A stretch of DNA of 64,000 nt from Alphaproteobacteria bacterium (GTDB lineage: Bacteria; Pseudomonadota; Alphaproteobacteria; CAISOG01). Of this stretch, positions 19,987-63,708 are shown one piece after another. A program made the translations under genes and the position numbers. Position 1 is the stretch's first letter. Each line of letters starts with the position of its first letter. The stretch lies in assembly GCA_044375625.1 (NCBI GenBank), contig JBILMH010000003.1:1907-65906 (forward strand), in the 5' to 3' direction. The notes beneath the pieces are model-generated. The model was given only the letters and a program-made list of their open reading frames with translations. It did no database searches and had not been told where the DNA came from.

Positions 19987-22900
19987 GTGATGCGTCGTTG
20001 TCTGTTTGCGTTATTCCTTATAACTGTTTGGCCAGCATTGGTGATGGCACAAGACCTTGGGTCTGAGACAGAGAATGAGGGCGCAACGCAAACAAAGGAA
20101 TTGCGGATTTTGCGGGTGACGCCTGATGGTGAGGATGTGGAGCCAGGGCGGCAGATTGTTTTGCAATTCAACCGCCCTGTTGTGCCAATTGGCAGTATGG
20201 AGCGATCCAGTGCCGATATCCCCATTGAGATTGAGCCGAAATTGAACTGTCAATGGCGGTGGCTGAACACCTCTGCTTTGTCATGCAACCTGAATGACAA
20301 TGATACCATGAAGCAGGCAACGCTGTATCGCCTGGTCATGAAGCCAGGCATCAAAGCAGAAGATGGGCGTACGATTGCTGAGGCGTTTACCCATGAGTTT
20401 GTAACAAAACGTCCCGATATTGATTATGTCCGTATTCAAAAATGGCTGGCACCTGGCACCCCTGTAATCCGGGCGGTCTTTAACCAATCGGTCACCCAGA
20501 AATCGGTTGAAGCCAGCCTGGTGATTGGTCAGGAAAAGAATCCGACCGCCAAGACCTATGCGCTTAAGGTTGAAGTAGACCCAGAGGAAACAGAACCGCC
20601 AAGCTATCTTCCCCTGCCGGGCACTAAGATATGGGCATTCTTTGGCGCACAAAAAGCTCAAAAAAGTGATGAGGATCTGCGCAAATCGGGCGCTGAGGAG
20701 GCGCGGCGGGTTTGGTTAATCACGCCGAAAAAAGAGCTGCCGTTGGATACATCCATGAATCTAAGGATCAGACCAGGTCTGATTTCGGCTATGGGGTCAG
20801 AGCAGGGGATTGCTGATCGGTCTGCATTAAGCTTTCAAACCTTCCCAGCCTTCGCGTTTTTGGGCGTTCAATGTGTCTCAAACGCGGGGGACAAGCTTCT
20901 TTTCGAGTCTAAGAAAAGTCAGACGGGTCTTTGCAACCCCATGGCGCCCATTTCTTTGGTATTCAGCAGTCCTGTTTTGCGTTCAGAAATTCGCAAGAAC
21001 GCCCGCATAATATTAAATGAAAACGGCAAAGCTGGATCCATGAGTTTGGACGATTTATGGGCAGAAAACAATTATTCCCGATTAAATGGTGAACATGAAT
21101 TGGGCGAAACCTACGCCATCAATCTTCCCTATGGTCTTAAGGCGGCGGCCGAATACACGGTTAAAAGTACGTCACTGGAAAGGGGCTTTTTTGAAAAAAT
21201 CTGGCGGTGGATTAGGGCGCTGTTTGTTAAGGGTATCGATACAGAAATTAAGGATGAATTTGATCGTAAGCTGCTGAATCCTATTGATGTAATTTTTAGA
21301 ACCGATCATCGGTTGCCGAATTTTGAAATTGTCCACAATACCGCGGTGTTGGAAAAACAAATCGACAGTGAGGTGCCGCTGTACGTCAACAATTTGACCA
21401 AGACTAGCTTTTCCTATCGCATGGTGACGGCTGATGGCGCCAAAACAGGACTAACAGCGACCCAGGCTGTTCCCGAAGTTCAGGATAAGCAGTTTGCCAT
21501 TCCCTTTAATGTTCGCCAAATGCTGAACAACAAAAGTGGGGCGGTTTTTGGCACGCTTAGCACCGAACCAATAGTAAGCAAATATCCTGGCGATCATCAG
21601 CTGTTTGCCCAGGTGACGCCCTATCAACTGCACCTAAAGCTGGGGCATTTTAACAGTGCTTTGTGGGTTGCGGATATGGCGACTGGTCAACCAGTTGCCA
21701 ACGCAAAGGTCACGATTTACAGGGACAAAATTTCTGAAATCAGCGCGGGTCAGCCGCCCTTAGCTCAATCAACAACCGATGCCAATGGGGTGGCGATGCT
21801 GGATGGCACGGAAAAGCTGGATCCGTCACTTAATCTGGCCAGAAGCTATCGCACAAAGGATGAATCCCTATTTGTGCGCGTACAAAAAGACGGTGAGATT
21901 GCCATCCTGCCCGTTCATTCGATGTTTGTTATCGATTCGTATCGTTCCGTTGGGGAAAGTGTTTATGCCCAAAATCGCAAAATCCAGGGGCATATGGTTA
22001 CTTGGGGCACCACGGCGCAGGGGGTTTATCGCGCCGGCGATACGATCCAGTACAAATTGTATGTGCGTAACCAGAACAATCGTACCTTGGTACCCGCCCC
22101 CCGATCGGGCTATACCTTAGAAATTCTTGATCCCACCGACAACAAGGTTTTTGAAAAACAGGCAATAACCTTGGGGGAATTTGGTGATTATGCGGGCGAA
22201 TTTCCGATTCCTAAGCAGGGTGCTGTTGGGTGGTATCAATTCCGCCTTTCAGCCGATTTTTCTGATCCAAAAACCAAGGATGCTAAGCATGCCGAAGATA
22301 AGAAAAACAATGCCGGCAATGAAGACGAAGAAGACCAGGATCAAAACAGCGACAAATTCACCTGGTACCCGCTGCGCGTGCTGGTCAGCGATTTTACCCC
22401 GTCGACATTTCGGGTAACCAATCAGATTAACGGCGATTTGTTCCGTTATGGACAGGATGTTGAGGTCGGTACCCAGGCAAAATTGCACTCTGGCGGCGCT
22501 TATCCCGACGCCAACATGAGCGTGACAGCGGTTTTGGAAGGCAAGCCCTTTGCCTCCAAAAACCCTGTGGCCAAGGATTTTACCTTTGACAGTTACGAAG
22601 GGGGGCAAAGCCAAAAACAGCTGGTGCAAAAAATTGCCCGCGTCGATAGCAAGGGTGAAAACACCCTGTCCTTCACCCTGCCCAAGGAATCGATCTATTT
22701 CGGCCGATTGATGATTGAAAGCGCGGTGCAGGATGATCGGGGCAAAAATGTTGCCGCCCAATCCTATGCCGACTATGCGGGGGTGGATCGATTTGTTGGC
22801 TTAAAAATTGCCGATTGGATTGTGACAGCGGGCAAACCCACTTTGATTGATTATCTGGTTGTGGATGAGCGGGGCAATCCCGCTGCTGGCACGGCGGTGG

Positions 22901-25900
22901 ATATTGCGATTGAGCGTCAAGAAACCAAGGCGGCAAAGGTTAAGGGGGCGGGCAATGCCTATGTCACCGAATATAACAACGAATGGGTAGCGGTTAGCAG
23001 CTGTAAGGGGCAATCCCGCCTGCAATCCAACAGCTGTGACTTTGTGCCCAAGGATCCAGGCTATTATCGCGCAACCGCCAGCATAAAGGATAGTAACGGT
23101 AATGAGCATAAAACCCAGATCAGCCTGTATGTGGTTGGCCAGGGGCATGTGCTGTGGAACGAGTCGAACGACTATTCCCTGGAGGTTGTGCCCGAAAAAC
23201 CAACCTATAAGGTCGGGGATAGGGCGCGTTACCTAATCAAAAACCCCTATCCAGGCGCCAAGGCACTGGTGACGATTGAGCGCTATGGGGTGCTGGATCA
23301 TTTTGTGCAAACCCTGGAAGGCAGCACGCCGGTTATCGAGTTTGAGGTGAAGCCCGATTATATCCCTGGTTTTTACCTGTCGGTGGTCGTTTTTTCACCC
23401 CGTGTTGATAAACCTATTGAAAATCAGGTGGATTTAGGCAAACCATCGTTCCGCATGGGCTATGTAACTGTGCCGATTCAAGATCCTTATAAAGAGGTGT
23501 TGGTGACCGCCAAAACCGATCGGGAGGTTTATAAACCACGGGAAAAAGTTAAGCTATCGCTGCATGCAGAGCCCAGAACAAAAGATACCAAGGATCCCAT
23601 TCAGCTGGCCGTGGCGGTGGTCGATGAATCGGTGTTTGACCTGGTGGCGGGTGGCAAAAGCTATTACGACCCGTATCAGGGGTTTTACAAGTTGCAAGGG
23701 TTGGATTTACGCAATTACAGCCTGCTAACCCGTTTGATTGGCCGTCAGAAATTTGAGAAAAAGGGCGCTAACCCAGGCGGTGACGGCGGATCCGATCTGG
23801 CCATGCGCAACCAATTCAAATTTGTCAGCTATTGGAACTCATCCATCACCCTGGATAATCAGGGCAACGCCCAGGTGGAATTTGAGGTGCCCGACAATCT
23901 GACCGGCTGGCGGGTGCTGGCCATGGCGGTCACCAAAACCGATCGCATGGGGTTGGGCGATGCCAACTTTAAGGTCAATCGCCCGACGGAGGTGCGCCCC
24001 GTCATGCCGAACCAAGTTACGGAGGGCGACAGCTTTAAGGCTGGCTTTAGCGTGATGAATCGCACCGATAAGAAACGCGAGCTTGAGGTTGTCCTTAGTG
24101 CATCAGGCGATGTTGACCTGAAGGATGGGGCGGCAGCCACCCTGACCCAGAAAGTGACGCTGGATCCCTATAAACGCACCACGGTTTGGATGCCGTTGCA
24201 GGTCAAAGCCCTCGATGCCAGCCGTGAGGCAGAAACGGGTGCCATCAATTTCCGTGCAACCGCGCGCGATGCGCTGGATGGTGACGGCGTTGAGCATAAA
24301 TTGGTGATTCACAAACGGCGTTCGTTGGAAACCGCCGCCAACTATGGCACCACCACCGACAACAGGTTCGAAGAATCGATTAAATTTCCTGATAAAATTC
24401 ATGGGGATATTGGCAATGTTAGCATTGTGGCCGCTCCCTCTGTGATTGGCAATTTGGAGGGCGCCTTTAAGTATCTGCGTGACTATCCCTATGAATGTTG
24501 GGAACAAAAATTAACCAAGGCGGTGATGGCATCCCATTTTGTTAATCTGCGCGCCTATATGCCAAAGGATTTTGCATGGACGGACGCCGAAAAACTGCCC
24601 GACGATCTGTTAAAACAGGCCGCCAATTTTCAGGCGCCCAATGGCGGCATGGCCTATTTCATTCCGCAAGATCAGTATGTTGACCCTTATTTAAGTGCCT
24701 ATACAGCCTTGGCCTTTAACTGGCTGAAGAAAAGCGGATACAGCATTCCCAAAGAAGTGGAATCAAAGCTGCACAAGTACCTGGCCAATTTCCTAAAACA
24801 GGATAGCTATCCCGATTTCTATAATCAGGATATGGCCTCAACCGTTCGCGCGGTAGCCTTGGCCGCCCTGGCAGAGAACAACGCGGCGGGTAACACCAAC
24901 ATTACCCTGGCGGATTTGGAGCGCTATCGGCCGCATGTTGCCCGCATGAGCCTGTTTGGCAAGACCTATTTTGTTCAGGCGGCAATGCGCGTTCAAGGCG
25001 GCGACAAATATGTGACAGAGGTCACCAATCTGATTCTGTCGCACGCCAATCAGTCTGGCGGCAAATTCACCTTTAGCGAGCAGTTGGATGACAGCTACAG
25101 CCGCATTCTTGCCAGCCCTCTGCGGGAAAATTGCGCCATTCTGTCAACCCTGACGGCGCTGAAAGATCACAAGACCGCCAAGCCATTGGTTGAGGATATT
25201 CCCTTTAAGCTGGTGCGGATGATTACCCAGGCACGCGGCAGCCGCACCCATTGGGAAAATACCCAGGAAAATGTGTTCTGCATGAACGGCCTGGTGGACT
25301 ATGCCCGCGCCTATGAAAATGTTGCTCCCAACATGCAGGTGACGGTCAAATTGGATGAAAAGCCCTTTGGCGAAACCAAATTTGCCGATGTTCGGGATGC
25401 CCCCGCCACCTTTGTCCGCAACATCGAAAAGGCCGATGTGGGCAGAAGCGCTAAGGCCAGTATTGAACGGCAGGGGGATGGCCGCCTGTACTATGCCACC
25501 CGCCTAAGCTATGCCCCGCTTGCTGAGCACGCCACCTATACCAATGCGGGTATAGGAATTAGGCGGGAATACAGTGTTGAGCGTGATGGCAAATGGCAAT
25601 TGTTGAAATCCCCATTCACCATCAAACAGTCCGAGTTGGTGCGGGTTGACCTGTACCTCTCGTTGCCGGCCGCCCGCAATTTTGTGGTTGTCGATGACCC
25701 CGTTCCAGGCGGGTTAGAGCCTGTGAACCGTGATTTGGCCACCGCCTCAATCGTTGATGCCGATAAGGGGGAATTCCAGGCCGCGGGCGGATCCTGGTGG
25801 TTCCAATATTCGGACTGGATTGGCTATAACCTGTCGCGGTGGAGCTTTTATCACCAGGAATTGCGCCATGATGCCGTGCGGTTCTATTCGGATTACTTAG

Positions 25901-26052
25901 ATCCCGGCAATTACCATCTGTCCTACACCGCGCAGGCGATTGCGCCGGGCAGCTTTGTGGTCATGCCCACCAATGCCGTTGAAATGTATGACCCCGATGT
26001 GTATGGCAAGGGGGTGGTGGACAGATTGGATATCGATGGCGGGCAGCCGTAA
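19987..26052 (+). CDS. Alpha-2-macroglobulin family protein (thioester-type, YfhM-like), 2021 aa
   Basis: Signal peptide, MG-domain-like repeats, CxEQ thioester-like motif (YPYECWEQK). The conserved pairing with pbpC immediately downstream supports the call. Confidence 0.8.
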   Translation: MMRRCLFALFLITVWPALVMAQDLGSETENEGATQTKELRILRVTPDGEDVEPGRQIVLQFNRPVVPIGSMERSSADIPIEIEPKLNCQWRWLNTSALSCNLNDNDTMKQATLYRLVMKPGIKAEDGRTIAEAFTHEFVTKRPDIDYVRIQKWLAPGTPVIRAVFNQSVTQKSVEASLVIGQEKNPTAKTYALKVEVDPEETEPPSYLPLPGTKIWAFFGAQKAQKSDEDLRKSGAEEARRVWLITPKKELPLDTSMNLRIRPGLISAMGSEQGIADRSALSFQTFPAFAFLGVQCVSNAGDKLLFESKKSQTGLCNPMAPISLVFSSPVLRSEIRKNARIILNENGKAGSMSLDDLWAENNYSRLNGEHELGETYAINLPYGLKAAAEYTVKSTSLERGFFEKIWRWIRALFVKGIDTEIKDEFDRKLLNPIDVIFRTDHRLPNFEIVHNTAVLEKQIDSEVPLYVNNLTKTSFSYRMVTADGAKTGLTATQAVPEVQDKQFAIPFNVRQMLNNKSGAVFGTLSTEPIVSKYPGDHQLFAQVTPYQLHLKLGHFNSALWVADMATGQPVANAKVTIYRDKISEISAGQPPLAQSTTDANGVAMLDGTEKLDPSLNLARSYRTKDESLFVRVQKDGEIAILPVHSMFVIDSYRSVGESVYAQNRKIQGHMVTWGTTAQGVYRAGDTIQYKLYVRNQNNRTLVPAPRSGYTLEILDPTDNKVFEKQAITLGEFGDYAGEFPIPKQGAVGWYQFRLSADFSDPKTKDAKHAEDKKNNAGNEDEEDQDQNSDKFTWYPLRVLVSDFTPSTFRVTNQINGDLFRYGQDVEVGTQAKLHSGGAYPDANMSVTAVLEGKPFASKNPVAKDFTFDSYEGGQSQKQLVQKIARVDSKGENTLSFTLPKESIYFGRLMIESAVQDDRGKNVAAQSYADYAGVDRFVGLKIADWIVTAGKPTLIDYLVVDERGNPAAGTAVDIAIERQETKAAKVKGAGNAYVTEYNNEWVAVSSCKGQSRLQSNSCDFVPKDPGYYRATASIKDSNGNEHKTQISLYVVGQGHVLWNESNDYSLEVVPEKPTYKVGDRARYLIKNPYPGAKALVTIERYGVLDHFVQTLEGSTPVIEFEVKPDYIPGFYLSVVVFSPRVDKPIENQVDLGKPSFRMGYVTVPIQDPYKEVLVTAKTDREVYKPREKVKLSLHAEPRTKDTKDPIQLAVAVVDESVFDLVAGGKSYYDPYQGFYKLQGLDLRNYSLLTRLIGRQKFEKKGANPGGDGGSDLAMRNQFKFVSYWNSSITLDNQGNAQVEFEVPDNLTGWRVLAMAVTKTDRMGLGDANFKVNRPTEVRPVMPNQVTEGDSFKAGFSVMNRTDKKRELEVVLSASGDVDLKDGAAATLTQKVTLDPYKRTTVWMPLQVKALDASREAETGAINFRATARDALDGDGVEHKLVIHKRRSLETAANYGTTTDNRFEESIKFPDKIHGDIGNVSIVAAPSVIGNLEGAFKYLRDYPYECWEQKLTKAVMASHFVNLRAYMPKDFAWTDAEKLPDDLLKQAANFQAPNGGMAYFIPQDQYVDPYLSAYTALAFNWLKKSGYSIPKEVESKLHKYLANFLKQDSYPDFYNQDMASTVRAVALAALAENNAAGNTNITLADLERYRPHVARMSLFGKTYFVQAAMRVQGGDKYVTEVTNLILSHANQSGGKFTFSEQLDDSYSRILASPLRENCAILSTLTALKDHKTAKPLVEDIPFKLVRMITQARGSRTHWENTQENVFCMNGLVDYARAYENVAPNMQVTVKLDEKPFGETKFADVRDAPATFVRNIEKADVGRSAKASIERQGDGRLYYATRLSYAPLAEHATYTNAGIGIRREYSVERDGKWQLLKSPFTIKQSELVRVDLYLSLPAARNFVVVDDPVPGGLEPVNRDLATASIVDADKGEFQAAGGSWWFQYSDWIGYNLSRWSFYHQELRHDAVRFYSDYLDPGNYHLSYTAQAIAPGSFVVMPTNAVEMYDPDVYGKGVVDRLDIDGGQP

Positions 26053-26055
26053 GGC

Positions 26056-28263
26056 ATGGCCAACATGCGAAAAACCCTTCGCTGGTGCGCGCGCTGTCTG
26101 CTCATCCTGCTGCTGATTTTTATCGGCAAAACGGCGATCGATTATGCGTCGCCCTATCGTGATTTTCACAGCGTTCGATCCGATGCCAACGCCATCCAGA
26201 TTTTGGATCGCCATGGCCAACCCCTGACCTTTACCTATCAAAACCGCTGGAATACCAGTGATGCTGTCGCCCTGCATGAGATGCCAGAGCTGTTGCAAAA
26301 TGCCTTTATCTTGTCTGAGGATAAGCGGTTTTATCAACACAGCGGCGTCGATTGGGTCGCGCGGGGCAGCGCGCTGTGGCACCGATGGATACAGGGTTAT
26401 GCCGCCCGTGGTGCCAGCACGATTACGGAGCAGGTGGTGCGGATGATTCATCCCCGCCCCCGCACCTTTTGGTCAAAATGGCTAGAAGGTCTTGAGGCGT
26501 TATCGTTGGAGATGCGTGTCAGCAAGCCCGCCATCCTGGAATTCTATCTGAACCAGGTGCCCTATGCCGCCAACCGCCGCGGGGTGGTGCAGGCCGCCCG
26601 ATATTATTTCAACCGCGACATCAACACCCTGAATACGAAAGAGATTTTGGCGCTGGCCGTATTGGTGCGCGCGCCATCCAAATTTGACCTGTTCGACGGC
26701 AAAATTCAGATTGAGGAATCGATCAAAAGGCTTGCCGAAACCATGGTGCAGGCGGGACAAATGGATGAAGCCCTTTTGCAGGGGTTAAGCCGCTATGACT
26801 TGGCGTTGGAAAGCGCCAGCCTGTCGGTGCAGGCCTTTCATTTTGTCGATTATATTCGTGACCATACGGGCGCATCGCATGGCGGCGGCCAGGCCAAAAT
26901 GGTCACCACCCTGGATGCATCGTTGCAGCAGTTTGTGCAAAGCCTGCTGGAAAGCCGATTGCAGGCCTTGGCATCACGCCAAATAACCCAGGCGGCCGCG
27001 TTGGTGGTTGATCGGCAAACGCATGAGATTTTGGCCTGGGTATCGGTGGGTAAAGAGTGCAAGCCCAGCAACAATCAGGCGCCAGGGTGTAAGATCGATA
27101 TGGTGACGGTGCCGCGTCAGCCTGGATCCGCCCTGAAACCCTTTTTGTACGCCGCCGCTTTGGAAAAGGGCTGGACACCGGCGACTGTTATTGAGGATGC
27201 GCCATTTTCCGACATGGTGGGGCGGGGCATCCATCATTTTCATAACTACAGCAACACCTATTACGGCAGGGTTACCCTGCGCACCGCCCTGGGCAACTCG
27301 CTGAACATTCCCGCCCTGCACGCCATCAATTTTGTCACGCCCACCAGCTATCTGGTGACCCTACACGCCCTGGGGTTTTCCACCCTTAGGAAGGGTGCCG
27401 ATTTCTATGATGACGGGCTGGCGCTGGGCAATGGAGAGGTCAGCCTGCTGGAATTGGTGCAGGCCTACAGCGCCCTGGCCAATCGCGGGGTATTTCAACC
27501 GCTAACCATGACCTTTTACCGCGATGATCCGGTCATAAGCCGCCGCGTTTTTTCTGAGGAGGTCAGCTCGCTAATCGGCAACATCCTGTCCGACCCATGG
27601 GCGCGCATGTTGGAATTCGGGCGCAGCAGTGTTTTGAACCTGCCCACCCAAACCGCCTTTAAGACTGGCACCTCAACCGATTATCGGGACGCCTGGGCGA
27701 TTGGCTATAACCATCGTTATGTCGCGGGTATATGGATGGGCAATGCCGATTACACCCCCACCGATGGCATTACCGGATCCTTGGGGCCATCCCTGGCCTT
27801 GCGCGGGATTTTCAGCGAATTGAATCAGCATGGTGAAACCGCCCCCCTGTATTTAAGCCCCAAATTGGTGACCAGGGATGTTTGCATCGATGTGACAGAA
27901 ATGGATCAGGATGCCCCCGATTGTTTGGCGCGCACCGAATATTTCCTGGCCGATTCCCTGCCGATTCAGGGTGACAGCCGCCGCCCAACCGCCAGCATTC
28001 AGATTGCCAGACCCGCCAACAACCTGGAAATGGCCTTTGACCCACGCATACCGCCCGAAAAACAGGCCTTTGAAATGCGGTTGAGTGGGGTGTTGGATAC
28101 GGATCAGGTGGAATGGACGGTTAACGACCAACGCTTTGCCAAAACCATGGGCGCCAAGTTTTTGTGGCCAATGACCCGTGGCCGCCACAGCGTCACCGCT
28201 ACCGTTTGGCGCAATGGCCAACCCCTAATCACCCTTGATCGCCAGAATTTTTGGGTGAAGTGA
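26056..28263 (+). CDS. pbpC: Penicillin-binding protein 1C (transglycosylase/transpeptidase)
   Basis: N-terminal TM, GT51 motifs (EDKRFYQHSGVD, ARGASTITEQV), transpeptidase domain and a PBP1C C-terminal domain. 735 aa. Confidence 0.85.
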   Translation: MANMRKTLRWCARCLLILLLIFIGKTAIDYASPYRDFHSVRSDANAIQILDRHGQPLTFTYQNRWNTSDAVALHEMPELLQNAFILSEDKRFYQHSGVDWVARGSALWHRWIQGYAARGASTITEQVVRMIHPRPRTFWSKWLEGLEALSLEMRVSKPAILEFYLNQVPYAANRRGVVQAARYYFNRDINTLNTKEILALAVLVRAPSKFDLFDGKIQIEESIKRLAETMVQAGQMDEALLQGLSRYDLALESASLSVQAFHFVDYIRDHTGASHGGGQAKMVTTLDASLQQFVQSLLESRLQALASRQITQAAALVVDRQTHEILAWVSVGKECKPSNNQAPGCKIDMVTVPRQPGSALKPFLYAAALEKGWTPATVIEDAPFSDMVGRGIHHFHNYSNTYYGRVTLRTALGNSLNIPALHAINFVTPTSYLVTLHALGFSTLRKGADFYDDGLALGNGEVSLLELVQAYSALANRGVFQPLTMTFYRDDPVISRRVFSEEVSSLIGNILSDPWARMLEFGRSSVLNLPTQTAFKTGTSTDYRDAWAIGYNHRYVAGIWMGNADYTPTDGITGSLGPSLALRGIFSELNQHGETAPLYLSPKLVTRDVCIDVTEMDQDAPDCLARTEYFLADSLPIQGDSRRPTASIQIARPANNLEMAFDPRIPPEKQAFEMRLSGVLDTDQVEWTVNDQRFAKTMGAKFLWPMTRGRHSVTATVWRNGQPLITLDRQNFWVK

Positions 28264-29605: not shown

Positions 29606-29785
29606 ATAATAAGTGGCCTAGGCTCAGGATAGGTTCGCATAGCGTCTACAACACCCCCCCCCACCCCCCCCAATTTTCCCCCCATCCCTCACCAAAATGG
29701 TGTAGACTGTGCGCAGGGGGCGGGGCTAGGGTAGGCGACAGGTTGCCCTGCTTGGCCTTTGGAATTGGCAATAGGAGTCAGGAAA

Positions 29786-54352: not shown

Positions 54353-55003
54353 TCATAAATCCTGTCCCCAGCCGCTAGCCAGTCCTCGCCGAACAAAGGG
54401 ATCAAATAAGGCATTTTTGCTTTCAGCATTAAGGACGTATAGGGGCGCTTTATTCGCCAGTAACTCACCAGGGATATCCAATTTAAAGCCAAAACGTCTT
54501 AGCATGGCTTGGCTTTGTGGTTTTAAACCCGTTGTGTAAATGCTTATGGGATAGCGTAGCGTGCCACTGTCAGCCCAAGCGTTTAAGGTGTGTGCTAACA
54601 ACAGCCCGATAGGATTATTTTTGGTTGGTTTGCGAAAATTTTTATCAATGATCATGCTGCCAATGTACCATAAATTGCATCCGTTGCGTTGCACCTCTGC
54701 TAAAGGCAGTGGCCAAATGTCGTCATAGCAGGCTTCCCCCTGACGAAAACGGTTGAGAAGTTCAGGGGATATTGGGTAAATGCGGATATGTCCAATTAAT
54801 CTCTCACCGCCATCGTCTGCCCAAAAAAGCCCTAAAAAACAATCTGGGTTATTTTGCCACCGCCCAAGCATTTGATCTTGGCTAGGTGTTACATCTTGAT
54901 AGTCGGGTTGCTCCATCTGCTGAATCATCACAAGCTCAGCTTGAGTTTGGATGGGGCGCAAGGTAAAGCCGTTCATACGAATAAAATACTGTGGCCAAGG
55001 CAT
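54353..55003 (-). CDS. Low-GC orphan hypothetical protein (216 aa)
   Basis: ORF in a compositionally distinct (lower G+C) segment between the helicase gene and the Pro-rich protein gene. No family assigned with confidence. Confidence 0.45.
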   Translation of the reverse strand: MPWPQYFIRMNGFTLRPIQTQAELVMIQQMEQPDYQDVTPSQDQMLGRWQNNPDCFLGLFWADDGGERLIGHIRIYPISPELLNRFRQGEACYDDIWPLPLAEVQRNGCNLWYIGSMIIDKNFRKPTKNNPIGLLLAHTLNAWADSGTLRYPISIYTTGLKPQSQAMLRRFGFKLDIPGELLANKAPLYVLNAESKNALFDPFVRRGLASGWGQDL

Positions 55004-55132: not shown

Positions 55133-57088
55133 ATGAGCGATACTTTTGACAAGCCATCTTTAGAACCTGTGGCGGCCACGACCGACAACGGCGAACAGCA
55201 ACCGCCCGTTGCGGAAAAGCTGGCCAGTAACGATGCCCCCGTCACGGTCTTTCGACCCAGAAGGCGGGCGGCTGTTCGTTTTGAGACCCCGCCGTTGTTG
55301 CAGGCCGAAGGCACCGATGCGGCAAGCAGCCAGGCAGAGTTGGTACAACCCCCCACCACTGAATCGGCTACCCCCCCCCTCACTCCCACTGCCACCCTCA
55401 CTCCCACTCCCGCATCGGCGGTTGAGGAATCGTCGGATCAAGCGGCGGCAACGGTGGCCAGTGCGGCGGCCAGCATCGTGACAGACGACTTGCCAGCCCC
55501 CGCCGCCATCATTCCCGATTTATCGCGCCCGGCCGATTTGCCCAAACTGGCTGAACAGCCCGCCCGCCCGACCAGCTTTGTGCCATCCTCTGTCGCCACC
55601 GCCCCCGTGTTAAGCGTGCAGCTGTCGGATGATGGATCGTCGCAAGAAGTGTCAGCCGCCCGCCCCACCCCCCAAAAAACGGTTAAGATTTCGTCCGCTG
55701 AACCAGCCCCCGCGCCCGAATCAGAACCCAAGTCGGAGGAAAAGCCCGAGGCAAAGGTTGAGGCAAAGGTTGAGGTGCCTCCCGCCGAAAAAGTGCCAGA
55801 CTTTCAGGAATGGTTGCGCCAACGGCAGGAGGCTTTGCGCAAAGCCAGGGAAGCCGCCAAAAAGGAACGTCCCGATGCCTTGAATCTTAAGCCTGCGGCG
55901 GGGGTACCAAGCCCTGATGAGGATGAGAATCGGCATGAGCCATCGTTGGCCATGCCCACTGGTGCGGGCGCCTTCCAAGACCGCTCTGCCGACACCAGCC
56001 CCCCAACCCAGACAAGTGCCACCGCTACTACCACCACCGCCAGTGCCAGCGCCTCCACCCCCCCAGCAGCCCCTGCATCAGAAGAGGGCGTCGGTTTTAA
56101 CCCTAACCGCACGGGGCGGCGCGGCGCGGTCTTTAACATTCCGCCGCCGACGACGGCTATTGCGGGTGAACCGTCAGAACCTGTCACGGGGCAGCCCAGC
56201 CCATCACCGCTCGACAGTCCTGGCTCCCGTTCATCATCCAGTGCGGCTGGCAATCCTGGCGGCGCGCGCGCCAGCAGCCCCTCTAGCCAAAGTGCGGAAC
56301 CCTTTATCCTTAATGAAGAAGGCCTTGGGTCGGCTGAGGCGGTGGAAAAGGTGCTGGCCTCAACCGAATTGGCCGAAACCCCCGCCCTGAAAGCGCTTAA
56401 AAGATTTCTTGAGCAGGGAAAGCCCGCCCCGATTGTGGTGGAAAAACCCAATCCAGTTAAAAAAATTAAGGAAGCGATCACCCTGCAACGTTTGGGGCGA
56501 TTGATCAGCAAGCCGCTAAGCTGGGCAGTTAGCAGCGCGATTTTGTTGGGTGGCTGGACGTTGGTGGTGGTTGGCTTTGTGGTGTTTTTCCTAAGCTTGA
56601 ACCCTGTTCCCTTCACCGATGCAATGGGCAGAGTATTTTGGCTGTTTCAGGCCAACCATGCCAGCCATTGGGCGGCATTGCCGCGCTATTATGACGCGGG
56701 GGTGGTGATTCCATGGTTTTTGGTGTTTGTCCTGACGGCGGCGGCTTTTGTTTGGATAACCACGGGGCTGGCTCTGGTATTTCGCCTTAGAAAACCGGTA
56801 TCGGCCTATTTGGAGCGCACCCTGGATCGCCGTTGGTATCAATTGAAAGCGCTGTTCCACAAATCCACGGATCCCGAAGATGCGCTTTTGCACACCTCGA
56901 TCAACGACATCGAAAGCATGTTGGCACAGGCGCGTAAGGAGGCTGAGGATGCCGTCAAAAAGCGTAAGGTAGCCGCCGCGGGTGGCACCCCGGGGGGCAG
57001 CCAGTCCAATTCTATCAGCATGGGTGGGGCGGAAAGCTCCGCCATGGCGCAGGCGGCCGCCTCACGCGGATCGGGGGGCAACGGGTAA
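55133..57088 (+). CDS. Pro/Ala/Ser/Thr-rich low-complexity protein with C-terminal polytopic membrane domain (651 aa)
   Basis: A long disordered-looking N-terminal two-thirds, then a C-terminal region with 3 or more hydrophobic helices. The ORF ends 14 bp before the prepilin peptidase gene. Confidence 0.5.
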   Translation: MSDTFDKPSLEPVAATTDNGEQQPPVAEKLASNDAPVTVFRPRRRAAVRFETPPLLQAEGTDAASSQAELVQPPTTESATPPLTPTATLTPTPASAVEESSDQAAATVASAAASIVTDDLPAPAAIIPDLSRPADLPKLAEQPARPTSFVPSSVATAPVLSVQLSDDGSSQEVSAARPTPQKTVKISSAEPAPAPESEPKSEEKPEAKVEAKVEVPPAEKVPDFQEWLRQRQEALRKAREAAKKERPDALNLKPAAGVPSPDEDENRHEPSLAMPTGAGAFQDRSADTSPPTQTSATATTTTASASASTPPAAPASEEGVGFNPNRTGRRGAVFNIPPPTTAIAGEPSEPVTGQPSPSPLDSPGSRSSSSAAGNPGGARASSPSSQSAEPFILNEEGLGSAEAVEKVLASTELAETPALKALKRFLEQGKPAPIVVEKPNPVKKIKEAITLQRLGRLISKPLSWAVSSAILLGGWTLVVVGFVVFFLSLNPVPFTDAMGRVFWLFQANHASHWAALPRYYDAGVVIPWFLVFVLTAAAFVWITTGLALVFRLRKPVSAYLERTLDRRWYQLKALFHKSTDPEDALLHTSINDIESMLAQARKEAEDAVKKRKVAAAGGTPGGSQSNSISMGGAESSAMAQAAASRGSGGNG

Positions 57089-57101: not shown

Positions 57102-57638
57102 TTGGGATGCGGTTTTGGGCGGGGGGGCTGGCTGATGGAATTGTTGGGCGGCGGCCAGGCGTTGGCCATTATTCTGTTGGCGGGTTGCCTGATGGCGCAT
57201 TTGGTGTGGGATTGGCGTGAACTGATCCTGCCCGACCTGATTAACGCCCTGATCTGGCTGATTGGCATGGTGGTTGCCTTAACCGCCCCTCTACCAGGAT
57301 GCAGCTGGACACAGGCCTGGCAGGGATCCTTGCTGGCCTTGGCGACCGCCTGGGGCTTTTACGAATTGGTTTGGCGGCTGCGTGGAGAGGAAGGCTTTGG
57401 CTTTGGCGATGTGAAGCTGTTTGCCGCCTGTGGTGCCTGGTTGGGGCCCGCCAAGCTAACCGGCATGGTGCTGGTTGGATCCCTAAGTTCATTGATTATG
57501 ATGGCGCTGATTGCCCTAATCAGTCGGCAATTTCATTTCCGGATGGCCATGCCCTTTGGCCCAGGCTTGATTGTTGGCTTTTTGGTCATGCTGCTTTGGC
57601 CAGATTGGTTAACCGTGCTGATGACGCGCTTGCTATAG
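57102..57638 (+). CDS. Type IV prepilin peptidase (A24 family, Tad/CpaA-like)
   Basis: GFGDVKLFAACGAWLG matches the A24 peptidase active-site region. Small polytopic membrane protein. Start possibly 57135. Confidence 0.65.
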   Translation: MGCGFGRGGWLMELLGGGQALAIILLAGCLMAHLVWDWRELILPDLINALIWLIGMVVALTAPLPGCSWTQAWQGSLLALATAWGFYELVWRLRGEEGFGFGDVKLFAACGAWLGPAKLTGMVLVGSLSSLIMMALIALISRQFHFRMAMPFGPGLIVGFLVMLLWPDWLTVLMTRLL

Positions 57639-57850: not shown

Positions 57851-58459
57851 TTACATGCCAAAGGGATACGCCTTGTTTTGGGTAATGCCACTGGCACGCA
57901 CGGGTTGCAACGCCTTGGCATAGGCCGCCAGGATATTCAGGGCAAAGTCGGCGCGATTGCGAATCGCCTGATCCTCTGGGCTGCTGGCATCCTGGCTGTT
58001 CAGCACATTGCCCACCTGGCGCACGATAAGATGTTCGGGGATATAGCAAATATGGTTGTTTTTATAGCTGCTGCTGCGCAATTCCGCGATCGGATAGGCG
58101 CCGCTAATGCCCGCCGATACCGATACCAGCAGGGCGGGCTTGTGACCCAATTCGGCGCTGCTGGCAAACAAAAAGAAATTCTTCAGCGCGGCGGGCGCCA
58201 TGCCGCCCCATTCTGGCGCAACAATGACAAAGGCATCGGCGGATTGCAGCATGGGCACCATCTTGCCCCAGGCCTTACCGCTGTTGCTGGTGGCATCCTG
58301 ATGTTGGCCATCCCACAGGGGCAGGGGGGTTTGCGCCAAATCAATCAGGCTGTTGGTGCTGTCGGGGTGCAGCTGTGACCAATGTTGGCCCAGATAGCGG
58401 CCAACCTTAAGGGATTCTGAGTCTAAACGATGACTGCCCGTCACGATGGTAAGATGCAT
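57851..58459 (-). CDS. NADPH-dependent FMN reductase (flavodoxin-like fold)
   Basis: N-terminal IVTGSHR...S.S and FVIVAPEWGGMAPAALKNF are typical of the PF03358 family. Confidence 0.7.
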   Translation of the reverse strand: MHLTIVTGSHRLDSESLKVGRYLGQHWSQLHPDSTNSLIDLAQTPLPLWDGQHQDATSNSGKAWGKMVPMLQSADAFVIVAPEWGGMAPAALKNFFLFASSAELGHKPALLVSVSAGISGAYPIAELRSSSYKNNHICYIPEHLIVRQVGNVLNSQDASSPEDQAIRNRADFALNILAAYAKALQPVRASGITQNKAYPFGM

Positions 58460-58669
58460 GGCAACGCCTTCATAAAAAAATTGCTACTGCATTAAGCCAT
58501 AAGTCAATCGTCACCCCGCGGCAAGAGCGAAGGGGGGGGGGCGTGGACAGATAATCGATTGTTTTGTGTTTCATGCAAATGTATGCAATAGTTGAGTAAT
58601 ATTTTAACAAATTCACTTTATATTTGAATGTGATTGGTTTGACTTTTGTCTAATTTTTAAGGGTCTTTT

Positions 58670-59749
58670 ATGGATATCGATGTTTTTGTTGAAACAGTAA
58701 AATTGGGATCCGTGCGAGTTTTTAATTGCCGTGAGGTTACGAGACAATTAAAAAAAGACAGCAAAACAGAGTTTGTTTTTAAAATACCTGTTCTTAATGA
58801 TTGTATCATTGTTAAGCAGCCTAATTTTTATGAAAAATCAAAAAACGACCCGGGAAAACCCAGCGATAAGCTGCTTACAAAGCTGTATTATCCCTATGAA
58901 GACAATATATTAAATGGCGGCATGACCTTTGAAATAGCTGAAAGTAGCCTAGAGGAAATTGTGGGGGTTTTATGTAATAACAGTAAGCAGTATTGTGAAA
59001 TTATTAAGCATGATCAGAATATTATGTCGTCGTTTCTTGATGTTCCGACGGTAGACCCATTTATTCTTAGTGAAAACTTTCGAAGAAAAAGAATAAATGT
59101 GCCAGAAGACTATTTTAATGTGTCAAAAGATGAGTGGCGTGAAATCTATGAATTTGTTTCAAAGCAGTTTATGCCTATTTTAAAATTTGCCTATCTAGAT
59201 AAAAAAATAACATCAAACCAATCCGCAAGACTGGTTGATTTATTATGGAATGGGCGACTTTGTGATGAAACGGCCAGCATCATGAAGCCGTTAAATGTCA
59301 ATATAAATGATGTTGAAGATGTTTTGTTTTCCTGGAAGGGTATCATTTATTATATGTATATTTTCAGATCTAACTCTGAAAAAGCCGCTAAAATGACCAA
59401 ATGGTTTTCAAATGTTGGAAACAATCATTCTTATGTAAGCAATAATGTTTTTGAAAAAAAATTGTATTTTGCATCTAAAATCAAAAAAACCACTCGAAAA
59501 ATTAAAGATAAAATTGACCTTTACAATGAAGCTTATAGCAATCTTTTTGTGAAGCGTCAGAGCTCAAAACAATTTATTCAGTTTTTGGCGGACAGCCGAG
59601 AGATTTTTTGGGATATGTCTGCCGCCGTCAGTGAGATAACGACACTGTACCAAATCTGGTACAATTTCACCGCTCAGCATAAAAACCAACGGATCACTCC
59701 CGCCCGTTTGGCCTATTTCTTTGACCTGCTGGAATACAACCAGCTTTAA
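58670..59749 (+). CDS. AT-rich orphan hypothetical protein (359 aa)
   Basis: Strongly AT-rich ORF with an AT-rich leader. No TM. No family recognised. Confidence 0.5.
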   Translation: MDIDVFVETVKLGSVRVFNCREVTRQLKKDSKTEFVFKIPVLNDCIIVKQPNFYEKSKNDPGKPSDKLLTKLYYPYEDNILNGGMTFEIAESSLEEIVGVLCNNSKQYCEIIKHDQNIMSSFLDVPTVDPFILSENFRRKRINVPEDYFNVSKDEWREIYEFVSKQFMPILKFAYLDKKITSNQSARLVDLLWNGRLCDETASIMKPLNVNINDVEDVLFSWKGIIYYMYIFRSNSEKAAKMTKWFSNVGNNHSYVSNNVFEKKLYFASKIKKTTRKIKDKIDLYNEAYSNLFVKRQSSKQFIQFLADSREIFWDMSAAVSEITTLYQIWYNFTAQHKNQRITPARLAYFFDLLEYNQL

Positions 59750-59795
59750 TAACTAAAAAAATTATAATTTATTGCTGTGTATTGTAAGAATATTT

Positions 59796-60251
59796 TTAGC
59801 GTGTGTTTATGTGGTTGCTTGCTGAACTAAGTGCATTTTTTTTAATGCGGTAAAGGCTTTGAGACAGGCGTTCAACTGGTAGCTTTCCATTTGAAGTAAA
59901 GGCATCACAGAAAACTTTTGCTCCTATGCTTGTTTTGTTTTTTATGTCATAAGAAAAATCAGCTGAAATAAGATTAACAAAGTTATTTGCAAGTTCTTTA
60001 TTGTCAATTCCTGTTTGGCTAAGTTGCTCTAAAATATCAATCATGACTAAAATTTGAAGCTCTTTAAGATTTGTTATCGCTTCTACTACGATCTCACGGC
60101 TTTTAGAAGATTCGCATGCTTTTTGAGCTATAACTGGCAAATTATCGATCAGGATTTCAAAAGTTAACTCAGCAATTATTTCGTCGACGCGTGCGGTCTG
60201 ATGCAACTGATCACGCAAAACCGCTTTCAAATCGGGGGGCATAGAATCCAA
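59796..60251 (-). CDS. AT-rich orphan hypothetical protein (151 aa), convergent partner
   Basis: AT-rich ORF convergent with 58670-59749. No family recognised. Confidence 0.4.
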   Translation of the reverse strand: MDSMPPDLKAVLRDQLHQTARVDEIIAELTFEILIDNLPVIAQKACESSKSREIVVEAITNLKELQILVMIDILEQLSQTGIDNKELANNFVNLISADFSYDIKNKTSIGAKVFCDAFTSNGKLPVERLSQSLYRIKKNALSSASNHINTR

Positions 60252-60404
60252 GGCAATCCTCTTAAATTGCCCTCAATTCTATAATTAATGGTTGGCCGCT
60301 GTCAATAAGTCCTTATCTATAATTGCGCACTCTTTAAAAGTACAATGTTTCCCATTGCAACCAAACCATCTGGCGTGACGGAAGGACGTGGCCGCAGTTG
60401 TGAT

Positions 60405-61127
60405 TTACGCCATCTGAACAGAGGCTTCCTTAGGCTGGCTGGTCGCGCCGACAGGGTCTTTCAGCATATAGCCGCGTCCCCACACCGTTTCGATATAATC
60501 CTCGCCGCCCGTTACTTCCTGCAGTTTTTTGCGCAGTTTGCAGATAAAGACGTCGATGATTTTCGCCTCAGGCTCATCCATGCCGCCATACAGGTGGTTC
60601 AGGAACATTTCTTTGGTCAGGGTGGTGCCCTTGCGAATCGCCAACAGCTCCATAATCCGATATTCTTTGATGGTTAAGTGAACGGTGCGCCCATCTACCT
60701 CCACGGTTTGGGCGTCCAAATTGACCACCAGCTTGCCAATCGTAATGCGGGAGGAGGAATGCCCCTTAGAGCGGCGAATCACCGCCTGAATCCTGGACAA
60801 CAGCTCACGCCGATCAAACGGCTTGGTTAAATAATCGTCCGCGCCGCCATCCAACCCCTTAAGCTTGTCATCAATTTGCCCGCGTCCAGACAGGATCATC
60901 ACCGGCGTTTTGATGCTGGCGGAGCGCAAGCGCGCCAAGACTTTATGGCCATCAATGTCTGGCAACATCAGATCCAACAGAATCAGGTCGTAATCGTAAA
61001 TCTTGCTCATATCCAAGCCGTCCTCACCAAAATCGGTGGAGTCCACGACGTAACCACCAGCTTTCAGCACTTGCTCAAGCATTTGGGCGGTGGCGGAATC
61101 ATCCTCAATTAACAAAACGCGCATCAA
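60405..61127 (-). CDS. ctrA: Cell-cycle response regulator CtrA (OmpR family)
   Basis: Near-identical to remembered CtrA over [14 protein letters not shown]...KIYDYD...GADDY.TKPF...HLTGKEY...[38 protein letters not shown]...ETVWGRGY. Confidence 0.9.
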
Positions 61128-61194: not shown

Positions 61195-61209
61195 TTAACT
61201 ATCATTTAA
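61195..61209. promoter_or_regulatory. CtrA box TTAA-N7-TTAA upstream of ctrA (autoregulatory site candidate)
   Basis: ttaactatcatttaa read directly, about 70-80 bp upstream of the ctrA start, in an AT-rich promoter region. Confidence 0.5.
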
Positions 61210-61410: not shown

Positions 61411-62115
61411 ATGCGCGGCTATAACATTTATGGCGAAAGTATTCAGGTGGTCGAAATCGTTTTGGCCGACGGGGACGAGGTTTATGCCGACCCCGGCAGC
61501 ATGGTGTATATGAGCCACGGGGTGCAGATTAACACGGGCACTGGCCGCGGCGTTCTGAGCGGTATTAAGCGGATGATCGTTGGCGAATCCTTTTTTGTGT
61601 CGCGCTTTCGCTATGACGGGGCGGGCATGGGGCGGGTGGCGTTCAGCGCGCCATTCCCTGGTAAAATCATGCCGTTAGCCCTGGATGACCACGGCGGCGA
61701 GTATATTTGTCAGAAGAATGCCTTTCTCTGTGCCACCCTGGACGTTGGTATCGGCGTCGCCTTTACCAAAAAGCTGGGCGCGGGATTTTTTGGCGGTGAG
61801 GGCTTTATTCTGCAACGGCTTAAGGGGCACGGCATGGCCTTTGTCCACGCGGGCGGCGCGATTGTGGAGCATCGGTTGGAGGCGGGCGAGCATCTGAATA
61901 TCGAAACAGGCTGCCTGGTGGGGTTCAGCGCCAGCGTCAGCTATGACATCAAATTTGTCGGCGGTTTTACCAATGTGTTGTTCGGGGGGGAGGGGTTGTT
62001 TTTTGCCCATCTGGTTGGCCCCGGATCAGTGCTGGTGCAAAGCCTACCCTTTAGCCGTCTGGTGGATCGGATTATGGAAGTGGCGGCAACCTCTCGTAAA
62101 GCTTCGGGAAGCTAA
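61411..62115 (+). CDS. AIM24/DUF124-family protein (TIGR00266-like)
   Basis: Gly-rich, beta-rich 234-aa protein whose motif spacing resembles the AIM24 family. Recalled from memory. Confidence 0.5.
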   Translation: MRGYNIYGESIQVVEIVLADGDEVYADPGSMVYMSHGVQINTGTGRGVLSGIKRMIVGESFFVSRFRYDGAGMGRVAFSAPFPGKIMPLALDDHGGEYICQKNAFLCATLDVGIGVAFTKKLGAGFFGGEGFILQRLKGHGMAFVHAGGAIVEHRLEAGEHLNIETGCLVGFSASVSYDIKFVGGFTNVLFGGEGLFFAHLVGPGSVLVQSLPFSRLVDRIMEVAATSRKASGS

Positions 62116-62890: not shown

Positions 62891-62961
62891 GGGGTAGGGG
62901 CGGCTTTTGGCTGGCGCAAAATTTTATGATAAGCCATCTCTAAATTTTAGAAAAAATTACT

Positions 62962-62989
62962 TTGACAGGCAACTTTTTGTGTTTATTGT
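62962..62989 (+). promoter_or_regulatory. Sigma70-like promoter TTGACA-N16-TATTGT upstream of small orphan ORF
   Basis: Read directly. Followed by AGGAAAGAGAG and ATG 63023. Confidence 0.35.
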
Positions 62990-63022
62990 TGACAAGGTTA
63001 AACGAATAAACAGGAAAGAGAG

Positions 63023-63340
63023 ATGGATTTGGCCTTTCAAGTAAATCTTGTTGTCGACGGAGTGGGGTGCCCCTTAAGATTTGAAAAATTTGTGGATAAT
63101 GATCGCATCAGATACGCGGCCAAAGTCGAAGAGCCGAAGGTGGCCGATGCAATCAAGGTGGCCTATGCAATCATAGAACATCTTAAAAAACCTATGGGAA
63201 TAACCGCTTTGTTTTGTGTTCAAGGCGATAGTAAAAATGGTTTTTGTAGCATTGAGATAACAAATGACGCTATGGAACATCTAAATTTTTTAGAACTTCT
63301 TAAAAATGAAGCGCTTCAACAACTGGCTCGTGCAGCTTAG
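63023..63340 (+). CDS. Small lower-GC orphan protein (105 aa)
   Basis: ORF with a promoter-like element and an RBS. No family recognised. Confidence 0.35.
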   Translation: MDLAFQVNLVVDGVGCPLRFEKFVDNDRIRYAAKVEEPKVADAIKVAYAIIEHLKKPMGITALFCVQGDSKNGFCSIEITNDAMEHLNFLELLKNEALQQLARAA

Positions 63341-63708
63341 GGGTTTTGTTGGCACTCTTAACGATATCTGCGCCACCAGCCTTAGTCGATAAACAACTGT
63401 CATCGCCTTTGCGTAGAGTCTCCGATTGCTAAGCCATAGGCCGTCTTGAGACAACCACACACCCCAGCGTGCAAACGGCTTGACCACAGCGGATACAGGT
63501 CATTAACTAAGTCTTCTTTAACCAACCGTTAACCATCGGGGTTTAGGGTCAAAGGGCGGCGGCCAGCGGTTGCTTCAGCGGCGGCTGTTGCTACGGCTGC
63601 TGTTGCCATGCCCCGAATCTGGCCACCTGTTCCACCTGAAAGACGACGACGCCCCCGTTTTCTGCTGCCCCAACCCAATACTCAAGCAAACATTTCAAGC
63701 CCATATCC

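Follow-up and report, generated by a model that had tools for sequence, protein, structure and literature searches.

An AT-rich gene convergent to ctrA in an uncultured freshwater lineage belongs to a widespread, undescribed alphaproteobacterial protein family

Among described systems, those closest to the locus reported here are the CtrA-activated, MucR-repressed G1 genes of Caulobacter and Sinorhizobium, represented by the pilA and sciP promoters (PMC4083442, PMC11264516), the MucR-silenced AT-rich accessory genes of Sinorhizobium fredii and Brucella (PMC9410896, PMC10746212), and the single-gene defense or abortive infection (Abi) islets covered by PADLOC and DefenseFinder. CtrA has the consensus TTAA-N7-TTAA, usually located at -35, and functional sites deviate from this consensus (PMC11264516, PMC4083442). 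MucR prefers AT-rich DNA, co-targets and represses CtrA-activated G1 promoters (PMC4083442), and is a xenogeneic silencer of AT-rich genes in Sinorhizobium (PMC9410896). Here, we analyze an AT-rich island at positions 58460 to 60404 of a 64,000-nucleotide stretch (the window) of contig JBILMH010000003.1 from the alphaproteobacterial assembly GCA_044375625.1. The island lies between an FMN reductase gene and ctrA and holds two convergent open reading frames (ORFs), namely, ORF A (359 amino acids [aa]; 58670 to 59749, plus strand) and ORF B (151 aa, TTG start; 59796 to 60251, minus strand).

The comparison with these systems is partial in each case. Like the CtrA-activated G1 genes, ORF A has an AT-rich promoter and body within a GC-richer genome and a candidate TTAA-N7-TTAA-type element that would lie near -35, with perfect boxes at its closest paralogs and at the ctrA of its lineage; however, its own box deviates at two positions, its family is not among the described CtrA targets, and the likeness is at the sequence level. 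With the MucR-silenced accessory genes the locus shares a sharp AT island and between-strain variation, here of ORF B and of the island alleles, whereas ORF A appears fixed, is syntenic, under purifying selection, and compositionally stationary, and is associated with neither mobility genes nor an identifiable donor. The small size, the AT-richness, the allelic divergence, the tandem paralogs in relatives, and the patchy family distribution recall single-gene defense islets, from which ORF A differs in that no defense model matched among 68 family members, no defense or mobility genes are co-located, and presence/absence polymorphism among close relatives concerns ORF B only. According to our analysis, which we hold with a probability of roughly 0.55, ORF A is best accounted for as a clade-fixed family gene with its own conserved promoter and an AT-rich base-composition equilibrium, accompanied by an optional ORF B that recombines independently.

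Family, structure, and genomic position of ORF A

Judged from the sequence alone, the two ORFs had originally been predicted to match no known family, and ORF A to be an orphan. With respect to curated libraries, the absence of a match was borne out for both, as nothing was found in Pfam, NCBIfam, PADLOC, or PHROGs (the single PHROG match for the set of ORF A and ORF B sequences had an E value of 0.007 and partial coverage). In sequence space, instead, ORF A has abundant relatives. A word-indexed search returned seven clusters with 74 to 98% identity, each of exactly 359 aa, and an exhaustive hmmsearch with the profile of those seven clusters against 1.84 billion representatives retrieved 435 clusters at an E value of ≤1e-3, 264 at ≤1e-10, and 20 at ≤1e-30. 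The members are mostly full length (360 to 400 aa) and cover profile positions ~10 to 350; with the 68-sequence hidden Markov model of the family, ORF A reaches a score of 363 bits. ORF A is therefore no orphan, being a member of a widespread and undescribed family. All named members are alphaproteobacterial and annotated as "hypothetical protein," among them those of Caulobacter mirabilis, of plasmid pASTEX01 of Asticcacaulis excentricus CB48 (WP_013481032.1), and of Azospirillum argentinense. Scanning the 68 members against Pfam, NCBIfam, and PADLOC produced isolated single-member noise only.

Alignments of 68 and 26 members reveal a set of conserved positions, all of which are present in ORF A: F37, N43, K49, T70, G83-G84, D115, P126, and P130-F131, followed by Y148, W193, W222-K-G (W222 and G224), Y285, and F302/F305. 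P130-F131 sit in a P-x-LDPFLL-E motif, and T70-K71 is conserved along with the GG pair at 83 and 84. The AlphaFold2 model built on the 26-sequence alignment is confident, with a mean predicted local distance difference test score (pLDDT) of 85.3 and a predicted template modeling score (pTM) of 0.82. It comprises a small N-terminal alpha/beta domain, of which the strands at residues 17 to 19, 46 to 51, 68 to 75, and 84 to 88 bear K49, T70-K71, and GG83-84, and a C-terminal bundle of very long helices (212 to 248, 258 to 293, and 309 to 336) within which W222-K-G is located. A Foldseek search of the model against the PDB detected nothing significant (best E value, 0.17; TM score, ≤0.26), so that the structural check yielded a confident model without a known fold. 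The matches to the alpha-pore-forming toxin components AhlC/YaxA, to PA28, and to Borrelia BBA64-66 have long antiparallel helices like those of the C-terminal half of ORF A; they reflect, however, a nonsignificant, generic helical-bundle likeness and leave the conserved N-terminal domain uncovered. Any biochemical activity that ORF A may have thus stays conjectural.

The position of the gene was inspected in contigs from JGI, ENA, Logan, and NCBI assemblies (at least eight of them independent, up to 360 kb long); contigs with family members are designated L001 onward. In every recovered contig with a close homolog (L001 to L008 and L015), ORF A is convergent to ctrA, which is followed by AIM24 and a Sel1 gene. 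The ctrA-linked orthologs share 74 to 98% amino acid identity, and their synonymous divergence (dS) extends to saturation, while ctrA is 97 to 99% identical across the clade. In L006, whose ORF A has 75% identity, a PAP2 gene replaces the FMN reductase gene as the left neighbor, and ORF A and ctrA are still together. Their stop codons lie only 21 bp apart there, tail to tail (L006 positions 3244 to 3266), so that the two converging transcripts have to overlap or else end at a common terminator, and transcriptional interference with ctrA is possible. Outside the clade, ctrA, the FMN reductase gene, AIM24, and ORF B were never adjacent to a family gene; the ctrA adjacency is thus clade specific.

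Contig counts are similar for AIM24, a core gene close by (~45 to 50), and ORF A (~45), all AIM24 contigs that could be cross-matched by length also carry ORF A, and NCBI metagenome-assembled genomes (MAGs) have protein accessions two apart (MBU3655420/22 and MFN8818565/67), as in the order AIM24-ctrA-ORF A. These counts and accessions are consistent with fixation of ORF A in the clade. A genome scan seeded with AIM24 added a single alphaproteobacterial relative (L045), in which AIM24 is not beside ctrA. Taken with the synteny, ORF A is a resident gene that appears fixed convergent to ctrA in one uncultured freshwater lineage. The accessory character originally proposed for the island accordingly applies to the patchy ORF B and to the ORF A subfamily elsewhere, and not to ORF A itself, which stands beside ctrA in every relative recovered.

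Selection, base composition, and the independence of ORF B

The island had been recognized by an abrupt shift to very AT-rich sequence, which our measurements bear out. Its G+C content is 0.357, versus a mean of 0.559 elsewhere in the window (1,945-bp windows; standard deviation, 0.036; minimum, 0.479), corresponding to a z of -5.6, and in 300-bp windows the G+C content drops from 0.55 to 0.59 to 0.30 to 0.39 between ~58.45 and 60.3 kb and then rises again. ORF A has a G+C content of 0.346 and a third-position G+C content (GC3) of 0.353, ORF B has values of 0.368 and 0.309, respectively, and the 46-bp spacer between their convergent stop codons (59750 to 59795) has a G+C content of 0.152, compared with a GC3 of 0.66 to 0.69 in the genes flanking the island. 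Both ORFs encode soluble proteins, that of ORF A without a transmembrane segment and that of ORF B small, and both are real genes, since they have full-length homologs, Shine-Dalgarno sequences, and ratios of nonsynonymous to synonymous divergence (dN/dS) of ~0.09 (ORF A) and ~0.3 (ORF B).

Selection on ORF A is strongly purifying, with a dN/dS of 0.07 to 0.13 in 15 of 15 pairs (~0.09) and neither indels nor changes in length. All of its orthologs have a G+C content of 0.33 to 0.35 and a GC3 of 0.32 to 0.36, versus a GC3 of 0.64 to 0.69 in their flanks. When third-position changes in ORF A were polarized in three independent pairs, 48 were AT>GC and 36 GC>AT, that is, per-site rates of 0.21 and 0.28, which imply an equilibrium GC3 of ~0.42 against the observed 0.35. 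ORF A is not ameliorating foreign DNA, because its saturated synonymous sites would in that case have moved GC3 toward 0.67. The gene is compositionally stationary, and its low G+C content is no scar of recent import, contrary to the foreign composition that had been supposed; the orthologs do occupy the same position in the relatives, and it is the match in composition with the surroundings that is lacking.

In AIM24 (61411 to 62115), recent synonymous AT>GC and GC>AT changes stand at 1:12 and 2:11, an excess which indicates a strongly AT-biased mutation spectrum in a genome of 55% G+C. We propose that mutation in this lineage is AT biased and that selection or biased gene conversion would hold the core genes at a GC3 of ~0.67, while ORF A and its closest paralogs would escape this GC-favoring force and lie near an AT-rich equilibrium of their own. 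Such an escape would fit a gene that is seldom expressed and that a MucR-type protein may keep silent. The exemption would also give rise to both the persistently low G+C content and a 4- to 8-fold-higher long-term dS. Between the window and L004, dS is 0.70 for ORF A and 0.17 to 0.21 for the flanks, and between the window and L005, it is ~2.2 and 0.24 to 0.35, respectively. In the closest pair (window and L001), the values are 0.096 and 0.057 to 0.10; this ratio of ~1 at the shortest distance would be due to slightly deleterious GC>AT changes that still await removal from the flanks.

The exemption does not explain all of the divergence. L004 and L007 differ at ORF A with a dS of 0.465, versus 0.006 for ctrA, 0.018 for AIM24, and 0.091 for the FMN reductase gene, and ORF B occurs in only the latter of the two. 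Across the same genome pairs, the dS of ORF B is 0.07 where that of ORF A is 0.48, and 0.41 where ORF A is saturated. A sliding identity plot places the excess of divergence on the island, with nearby spots varying as well. The differing dS values of ORF A, ORF B, and the flanks point to different histories and make the island a recombination mosaic; since neither the 25- to 77-fold excess of ORF A dS between L004 and L007 nor the discordance between ORF A and ORF B follows from exemption, recombination is required. ORF A alleles and the optional ORF B cassette would then be exchanged between strains by homologous recombination.

ORF B is carried by the window, L007/L008, L096, and L097, with homologs of 77 to 100% identity, and L005 has a divergent ortholog (31% identity, 175 aa) in the same slot. 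It is absent from L001 to L004 and from L006. Between the stop codons of ORF A and ctrA, the indel cassette (59750 to 60404) is replaced by an unrelated spacer of 140 to 154 bp in L001 to L004 and of 21 bp in L006. An ATG at codon 4 would give the 148-aa form adopted by a public annotation. Upstream of the gene, on the minus strand, are the Shine-Dalgarno sequence AAGAGGA (60257 to 60263), conserved in L007, and a sigma-70-like promoter TTGACA-18-TAGAAT (60276 to 60305) which matches the consensus at 11 of 12 positions; the TTGACA and the 18-nucleotide spacing are kept in L007 and also in the 31%-identity ortholog of L005. The dN/dS of ORF B is 0.28 to 0.31 for the more distant comparisons and rises to 0.81 for the window and L007, a pair in which residues 61 to 82 are hypervariable, with nine nonsynonymous and no synonymous changes. 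No family or solved-structure match was found for ORF B in Pfam, NCBIfam, PADLOC, PHROGs, or known structures, and a scan of 10 of its homologs gave single-member noise only. The idea that ORF B might be a detached piece of ORF A was discarded on the basis of hhalign, by which the two profiles are unrelated. From these sequence features, ORF B is best regarded as a small accessory gene that evolves fast, can be dispensed with, and has a sigma-70-like promoter of its own.

The two genes had been taken for a pair. They are mutually independent and do not form a functional pair, because ORF A persists without ORF B in at least five loci, their promoters are separate, their genealogies are discordant, and their profiles are unrelated.

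Beyond the clade, distant family members (19 to 23% identity) match the G+C content of their hosts and have a GC3 of 0.69 to 0.94, whereas the members closest to ORF A (24 to 31% identity) are AT shifted at unrelated loci. The shift in G+C content is 0.42 against 0.62 in L108, 0.47 versus 0.60 in L114 to L116, where the gene adjoins an IS3-type integrase/transposase, and 0.38 versus 0.47 in L098. Several of these loci hold tandem copies. In L132 (6904 to 10193; also in L133), three paralogs with G+C contents of 0.40, 0.34, and 0.22 and GC3 values of 0.43, 0.30, and 0.16 stand between mfd and a poly(A)-polymerase-family (PolyA_pol) gene, in a host with a GC3 of 0.73 and flanks with a G+C content of 0.62. 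L098 has copies at 68 to 1012 and 1028 to 2146, the upstream one being split into ORFs of 148 and 156 aa by a frameshift or decay, and L129 has copies at 49 to 1680, the second with an internal perfect CtrA box in common with the third L132 paralog. The AT-island habit is thus a property of the ORF A subfamily and not of the site beside ctrA. All-versus-all clustering of genes up to three positions away at ~30 family loci returned no recurrent neighbor outside near-duplicate contigs, and the sampled neighbors are housekeeping enzymes.

Upstream region of ORF A and candidate CtrA control

The divergent intergenic region between the FMN reductase gene and ORF A (58460 to 58669; G+C, 0.38) contains the ORF A promoter. 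Within it, a noncoding block of 51 bp (58575 to 58625, plus strand) is 76 to 78% identical to L005 and L006, while the left part of the intergenic region is 28% identical, the stretch from the block to the Shine-Dalgarno sequence is ~38% identical, and the synonymous sites of ORF A are saturated. Such conservation marks the block as the phylogenetic footprint of an operator or a promoter. It includes a candidate CtrA box, TGAG-N7-TTAAC (58594 to 58609, plus strand), with two mismatches to TTAA-N7-TTAA, at whose position L004, L005, and L006 have the one-mismatch form TGAA-N7-TTAAC. Downstream, TATATT (58619 to 58624, plus strand) occupies invariant alignment columns and is a candidate -10 element, relative to which the 5' half of the box would fall near -35, and a Shine-Dalgarno-like AAGGG (58659 to 58663, plus strand) lies 6 nucleotides ahead of the ATG of ORF A, with TAAGG conserved in six loci. 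The ATGCAA/ATGCAAT repeat (58574 to 58590) and the TTGAC elements noticed earlier in the AT-rich leaders do exist, the repeat being only partly conserved in distant relatives. Reading this repeat as a sigma-54 promoter was rejected, as the elements are misspaced by one nucleotide and L005 and L006 do not conserve the GC of the -12 element.

The lineage uses the canonical CtrA motif, as indicated by the perfect and conserved box at its ctrA promoter. This box, TTAACTATCATTTAA (61195 to 61209, plus strand), lies between ctrA and AIM24 and likely serves ctrA autoregulation. Only one other perfect TTAA-N7-TTAA box occurs in the 64-kb window, at 63518 to 63532, preceding the rpe gene region, and the two are likewise perfect at the orthologous positions in L001 and L004 to L007. 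Perfect boxes also occur 97 to 137 bp upstream of three independent genes of the nearest subfamily: the first L132 paralog (TTAACAGATTCTTAA, with the half-sites TTAACCAT and TTAACCAAT close by), L014 (TTAACGACCTCTTAA), and L099 (TTAATTCTCTTTTAA). One-mismatch boxes precede the genes of L105 and of Asticcacaulis, the latter being TTTA-N7-TTAAC. For comparison, 442 kb of nonredundant alphaproteobacterial sequence contained 18 perfect boxes at ~7 independent sites, of which the ctrA promoter accounts for one, the rpe upstream region for one, and the upstream regions of family genes for three. We take the enrichment of CtrA boxes upstream of the nearest subfamily to be real; what the window itself offers is a conserved footprint that contains a degenerate box.

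ORF A is proposed as a member of the CtrA regulon because its conserved footprint holds a CtrA-type box around -35. It would be transcribed from this conserved promoter of its own, and we give roughly even odds to its being under CtrA control, in which case the cell cycle or development would set the time of its expression.

Setting of the island and competing explanations

The layout originally described, with a 359-aa ORF on the plus strand and a convergent 151-aa ORF on the minus strand between an FMN reductase gene and ctrA, agrees with positions, Pfam, and NCBIfam. On the left, the NADPH-dependent FMN reductase gene (57851 to 58459, minus strand; FMN_red PF03358, E value of 8.4e-21) has a host-like GC3 of 0.685 and is divergent from ORF A. 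On the right, ctrA (60405 to 61127, minus strand) scores 380.7 bits against the NCBIfam CtrA equivalog, for which the cutoff is 350, and has a host-like GC3 of 0.668; ORF B is on the same strand and downstream of it. The G10 homopolymer at the left compositional junction is also real, 3 bp away from where it had been placed, at 58532 to 58541 (plus strand) instead of 58535 to 58544. Its length differs between relatives, being G10 in the window, G9 in L001 to L003 (three independent assemblies), and G6TGA in L004, L007, and L008. Five other G or C runs of at least 8 were counted in the window, namely, a C9 and a C8 within 20 bp (29654 to 29671) and a C8, a G8, and a C9 elsewhere (6949, 36811, and 55371), and the border G10 is therefore not unique in the genome.

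No mobility genes were detected in 58460 to 60404, as had been noted, nor were tRNAs or border direct repeats. A 14-nucleotide inverted repeat (58393 to 58406 and 60290 to 60303) was dismissed as a border, since it is at chance level and has one arm within the FMN reductase gene. Rfam at the gathering score found nothing in the window (one chance-level match, with an E value of 0.94, falls within ORF A), and there was no phage or plasmid similarity for ORF A, ORF B, or the island DNA, nor any relative of either ORF in a search of viral contigs.

Elsewhere the window has the gene content of an ordinary chromosome (dxs, guaB, ilvD, groEL, H+-PPase, pntB, and mgtA). The close relatives of its proteins are from lake MAGs labeled Rhodospirillaceae, Holosporaceae, or Alphaproteobacteria bacterium; these NCBI labels conflict (cluster members P0211, P0229, P0255, and P0269), and the taxonomy is unsettled, the label Holosporaceae being doubtful because the 55% G+C genome encodes ilvD, dxs, and guaB. 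Other spots of the window are variable as well. A 216-aa ORF at 54353 to 55003 (minus strand), between a UvrD-like gene and a 651-aa gene, forms a second AT-shifted stretch (G+C, ~0.44 to 0.45) and another strain-variable slot, given that it is absent from L001 and L007 and 89 to 94% identical in L005. A third, at 62900 to 63420 (G+C, ~0.40), contains a 105-aa ORF (63023 to 63340, plus strand); L004 has there a PIN-domain gene and a 274-aa gene and L007 a 167-aa gene, and identity drops to 0.46 to 0.69. The 651-aa protein (55133 to 57088, plus strand) is Pro/Ala/Ser/Thr rich and of low complexity, with C-terminal hydrophobic helices, and evolves fast (65 to 82% nucleotide identity to L005). 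Immediately downstream lies the gene of a CpaA-like prepilin peptidase (Peptidase_A24; 57102 to 57638, plus strand), and the two may be a pilus-related pair. Farther away, ORFs of 2,021 and 735 aa at 19987 to 28263 (plus strand) have a somewhat lower G+C content (0.47 to 0.55).

Several observations weigh against the account of ORF A as a clade-fixed gene at its own equilibrium under a CtrA-type promoter. For most clade loci, ORF A or ORF B was itself the sequence by which they were recovered, which introduces an ascertainment bias, and the independent checks of fixation are indirect. The amino acid composition of ORF A is AT skewed too (K+N+I+F+Y, 0.38), and the gene may still have been foreign when the clade's ancestor carried it. 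The ORF A box of the window has two mismatches, and TTAA-like words are common in AT-rich DNA; a sigma-70 consensus scan called no promoter at the 58575 to 58625 block. Boxes are mostly missing from the GC-normal distant family members, and CtrA control, if real, may therefore be limited to one subfamily. Lastly, tandem diversifying paralogs, plasmid-borne members, and one group adjacent to an insertion sequence are features often seen in conflict genes.

An ancient import of ORF A (and ORF B) from a low-GC alphaproteobacterium, its AT-richness having since been kept through selection by a MucR-type silencer or through repeated reimport of alleles out of the donor pool, would share silencing with the account we prefer and differ from it only on origin. 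This is possible and, in our judgment, rather unlikely. It draws on the AT skew of both codons and amino acids, on the AT shift of the nearest subfamily in several unrelated hosts, and on MucR silencing of AT-rich genes, which is established in Alphaproteobacteria (PMC9410896, PMC4083442); however, no donor was identified, the close homologs being all ctrA linked, the tree of the alleles agrees in topology with that of the flanks, integration scars are missing, and the stationary substitution spectrum fits an in situ equilibrium as well as selection for AT. That the island is a defense or Abi islet, possibly with an effector-like pair, was the original prediction. ORF A, alone or with ORF B, would then be a conflict gene, AT-rich through horizontal circulation and beside ctrA by chance, which would suit the composition, the ORF A alleles, whose divergence far exceeds that of the flanks and which are swapped between near-identical genomes, and the presence/absence cassette of ORF B with its nonsynonymous-only variable patch. 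It would also suit the nearest subfamily, with its tandem diverging paralogs (L132, L098, and L129), plasmid-borne members, and IS3-adjacent group, and a family that is patchily distributed and whose members are solitary. We consider this explanation improbable, since neither of the two ORFs nor any of the 68 members is matched by a model for defense, Abi, toxins, or effectors (PADLOC-DB v2 has no families for either ORF at an E value of ≤1), and no PHROG or viral relatives were found. Moreover, ORF A appears fixed in the clade and not polymorphic, its dN/dS is uniformly ~0.09 at constant length, defense or mobility neighbors are lacking here and, the IS3-adjacent group aside, at other family loci, and a lack of constraint on synonymous sites accounts for most of the high dS. 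Among the marks of a recent island, ORF A displays the atypical composition and neither absence in relatives, integration hallmarks, nor amelioration.

A toxin-antitoxin or effector-immunity couple, in which a toxic ORF A is neutralized by ORF B, might be suspected from two small adjacent uncharacterized genes in an AT-rich patch and from the variable patch of ORF B, which could be an interaction surface. The intact ORF A under purifying selection in the loci without ORF B effectively refutes this, and the genes are convergent and not co-transcribed from their separate promoters, have discordant genealogies, show no homology to toxin or antitoxin families, and have no ORF B-like gene at any other family locus; we regard such a couple as very improbable. 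An assembly or binning artifact, by which an AT-rich fragment of another organism was misjoined between host genes, could be suggested by the abrupt compositional step and the homopolymer at the junction and is refuted by at least eight independent assemblies that agree on the junctions and on the order of the genes, so that its chance is negligible. A more speculative thought, which we rate as a long shot, is that the ORF A subfamily represents a novel type of cell-cycle-timed conflict gene, each member a solitary protein of unseen fold which is switched on by CtrA and otherwise silenced through its AT-richness. We retain a conflict role at this low level because of the tandem diversification of the subfamily and its accessory-like behavior elsewhere. 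If true, the gene would be on, for example, during the swarmer or predivisional stage, in which the cell is open to phage because of its pili and flagella. Tandem duplication and the exchange of alleles would be the source of its diversity, and with the gene fixed tail to tail with ctrA in this lineage (21 bp apart in L006), convergent transcription could also feed back on ctrA.

Under the preferred account of a clade-fixed ORF A with an independently recombining, optional ORF B, the locus bears on more than one lineage. It brings to light a family of at least 435 clusters at 50% identity that Pfam, NCBIfam, PADLOC, and PHROGs do not cover and that lacks a PDB match; since culturable hosts carry it (Asticcacaulis excentricus CB48, Caulobacter mirabilis, and Azospirillum), its function can be tested. 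Through the CtrA-type boxes that recur upstream of the subfamily, the gene becomes a fresh candidate for the CtrA regulon of freshwater lineages that have received little study. The strong protein constraint on ORF A, combined with an AT-rich synonymous equilibrium within a GC-rich genome, bears on the question of what maintains bacterial GC content, with selection or biased gene conversion pitted against mutation bias, and advises caution against taking compositional islands for recent transfers or defense islets.

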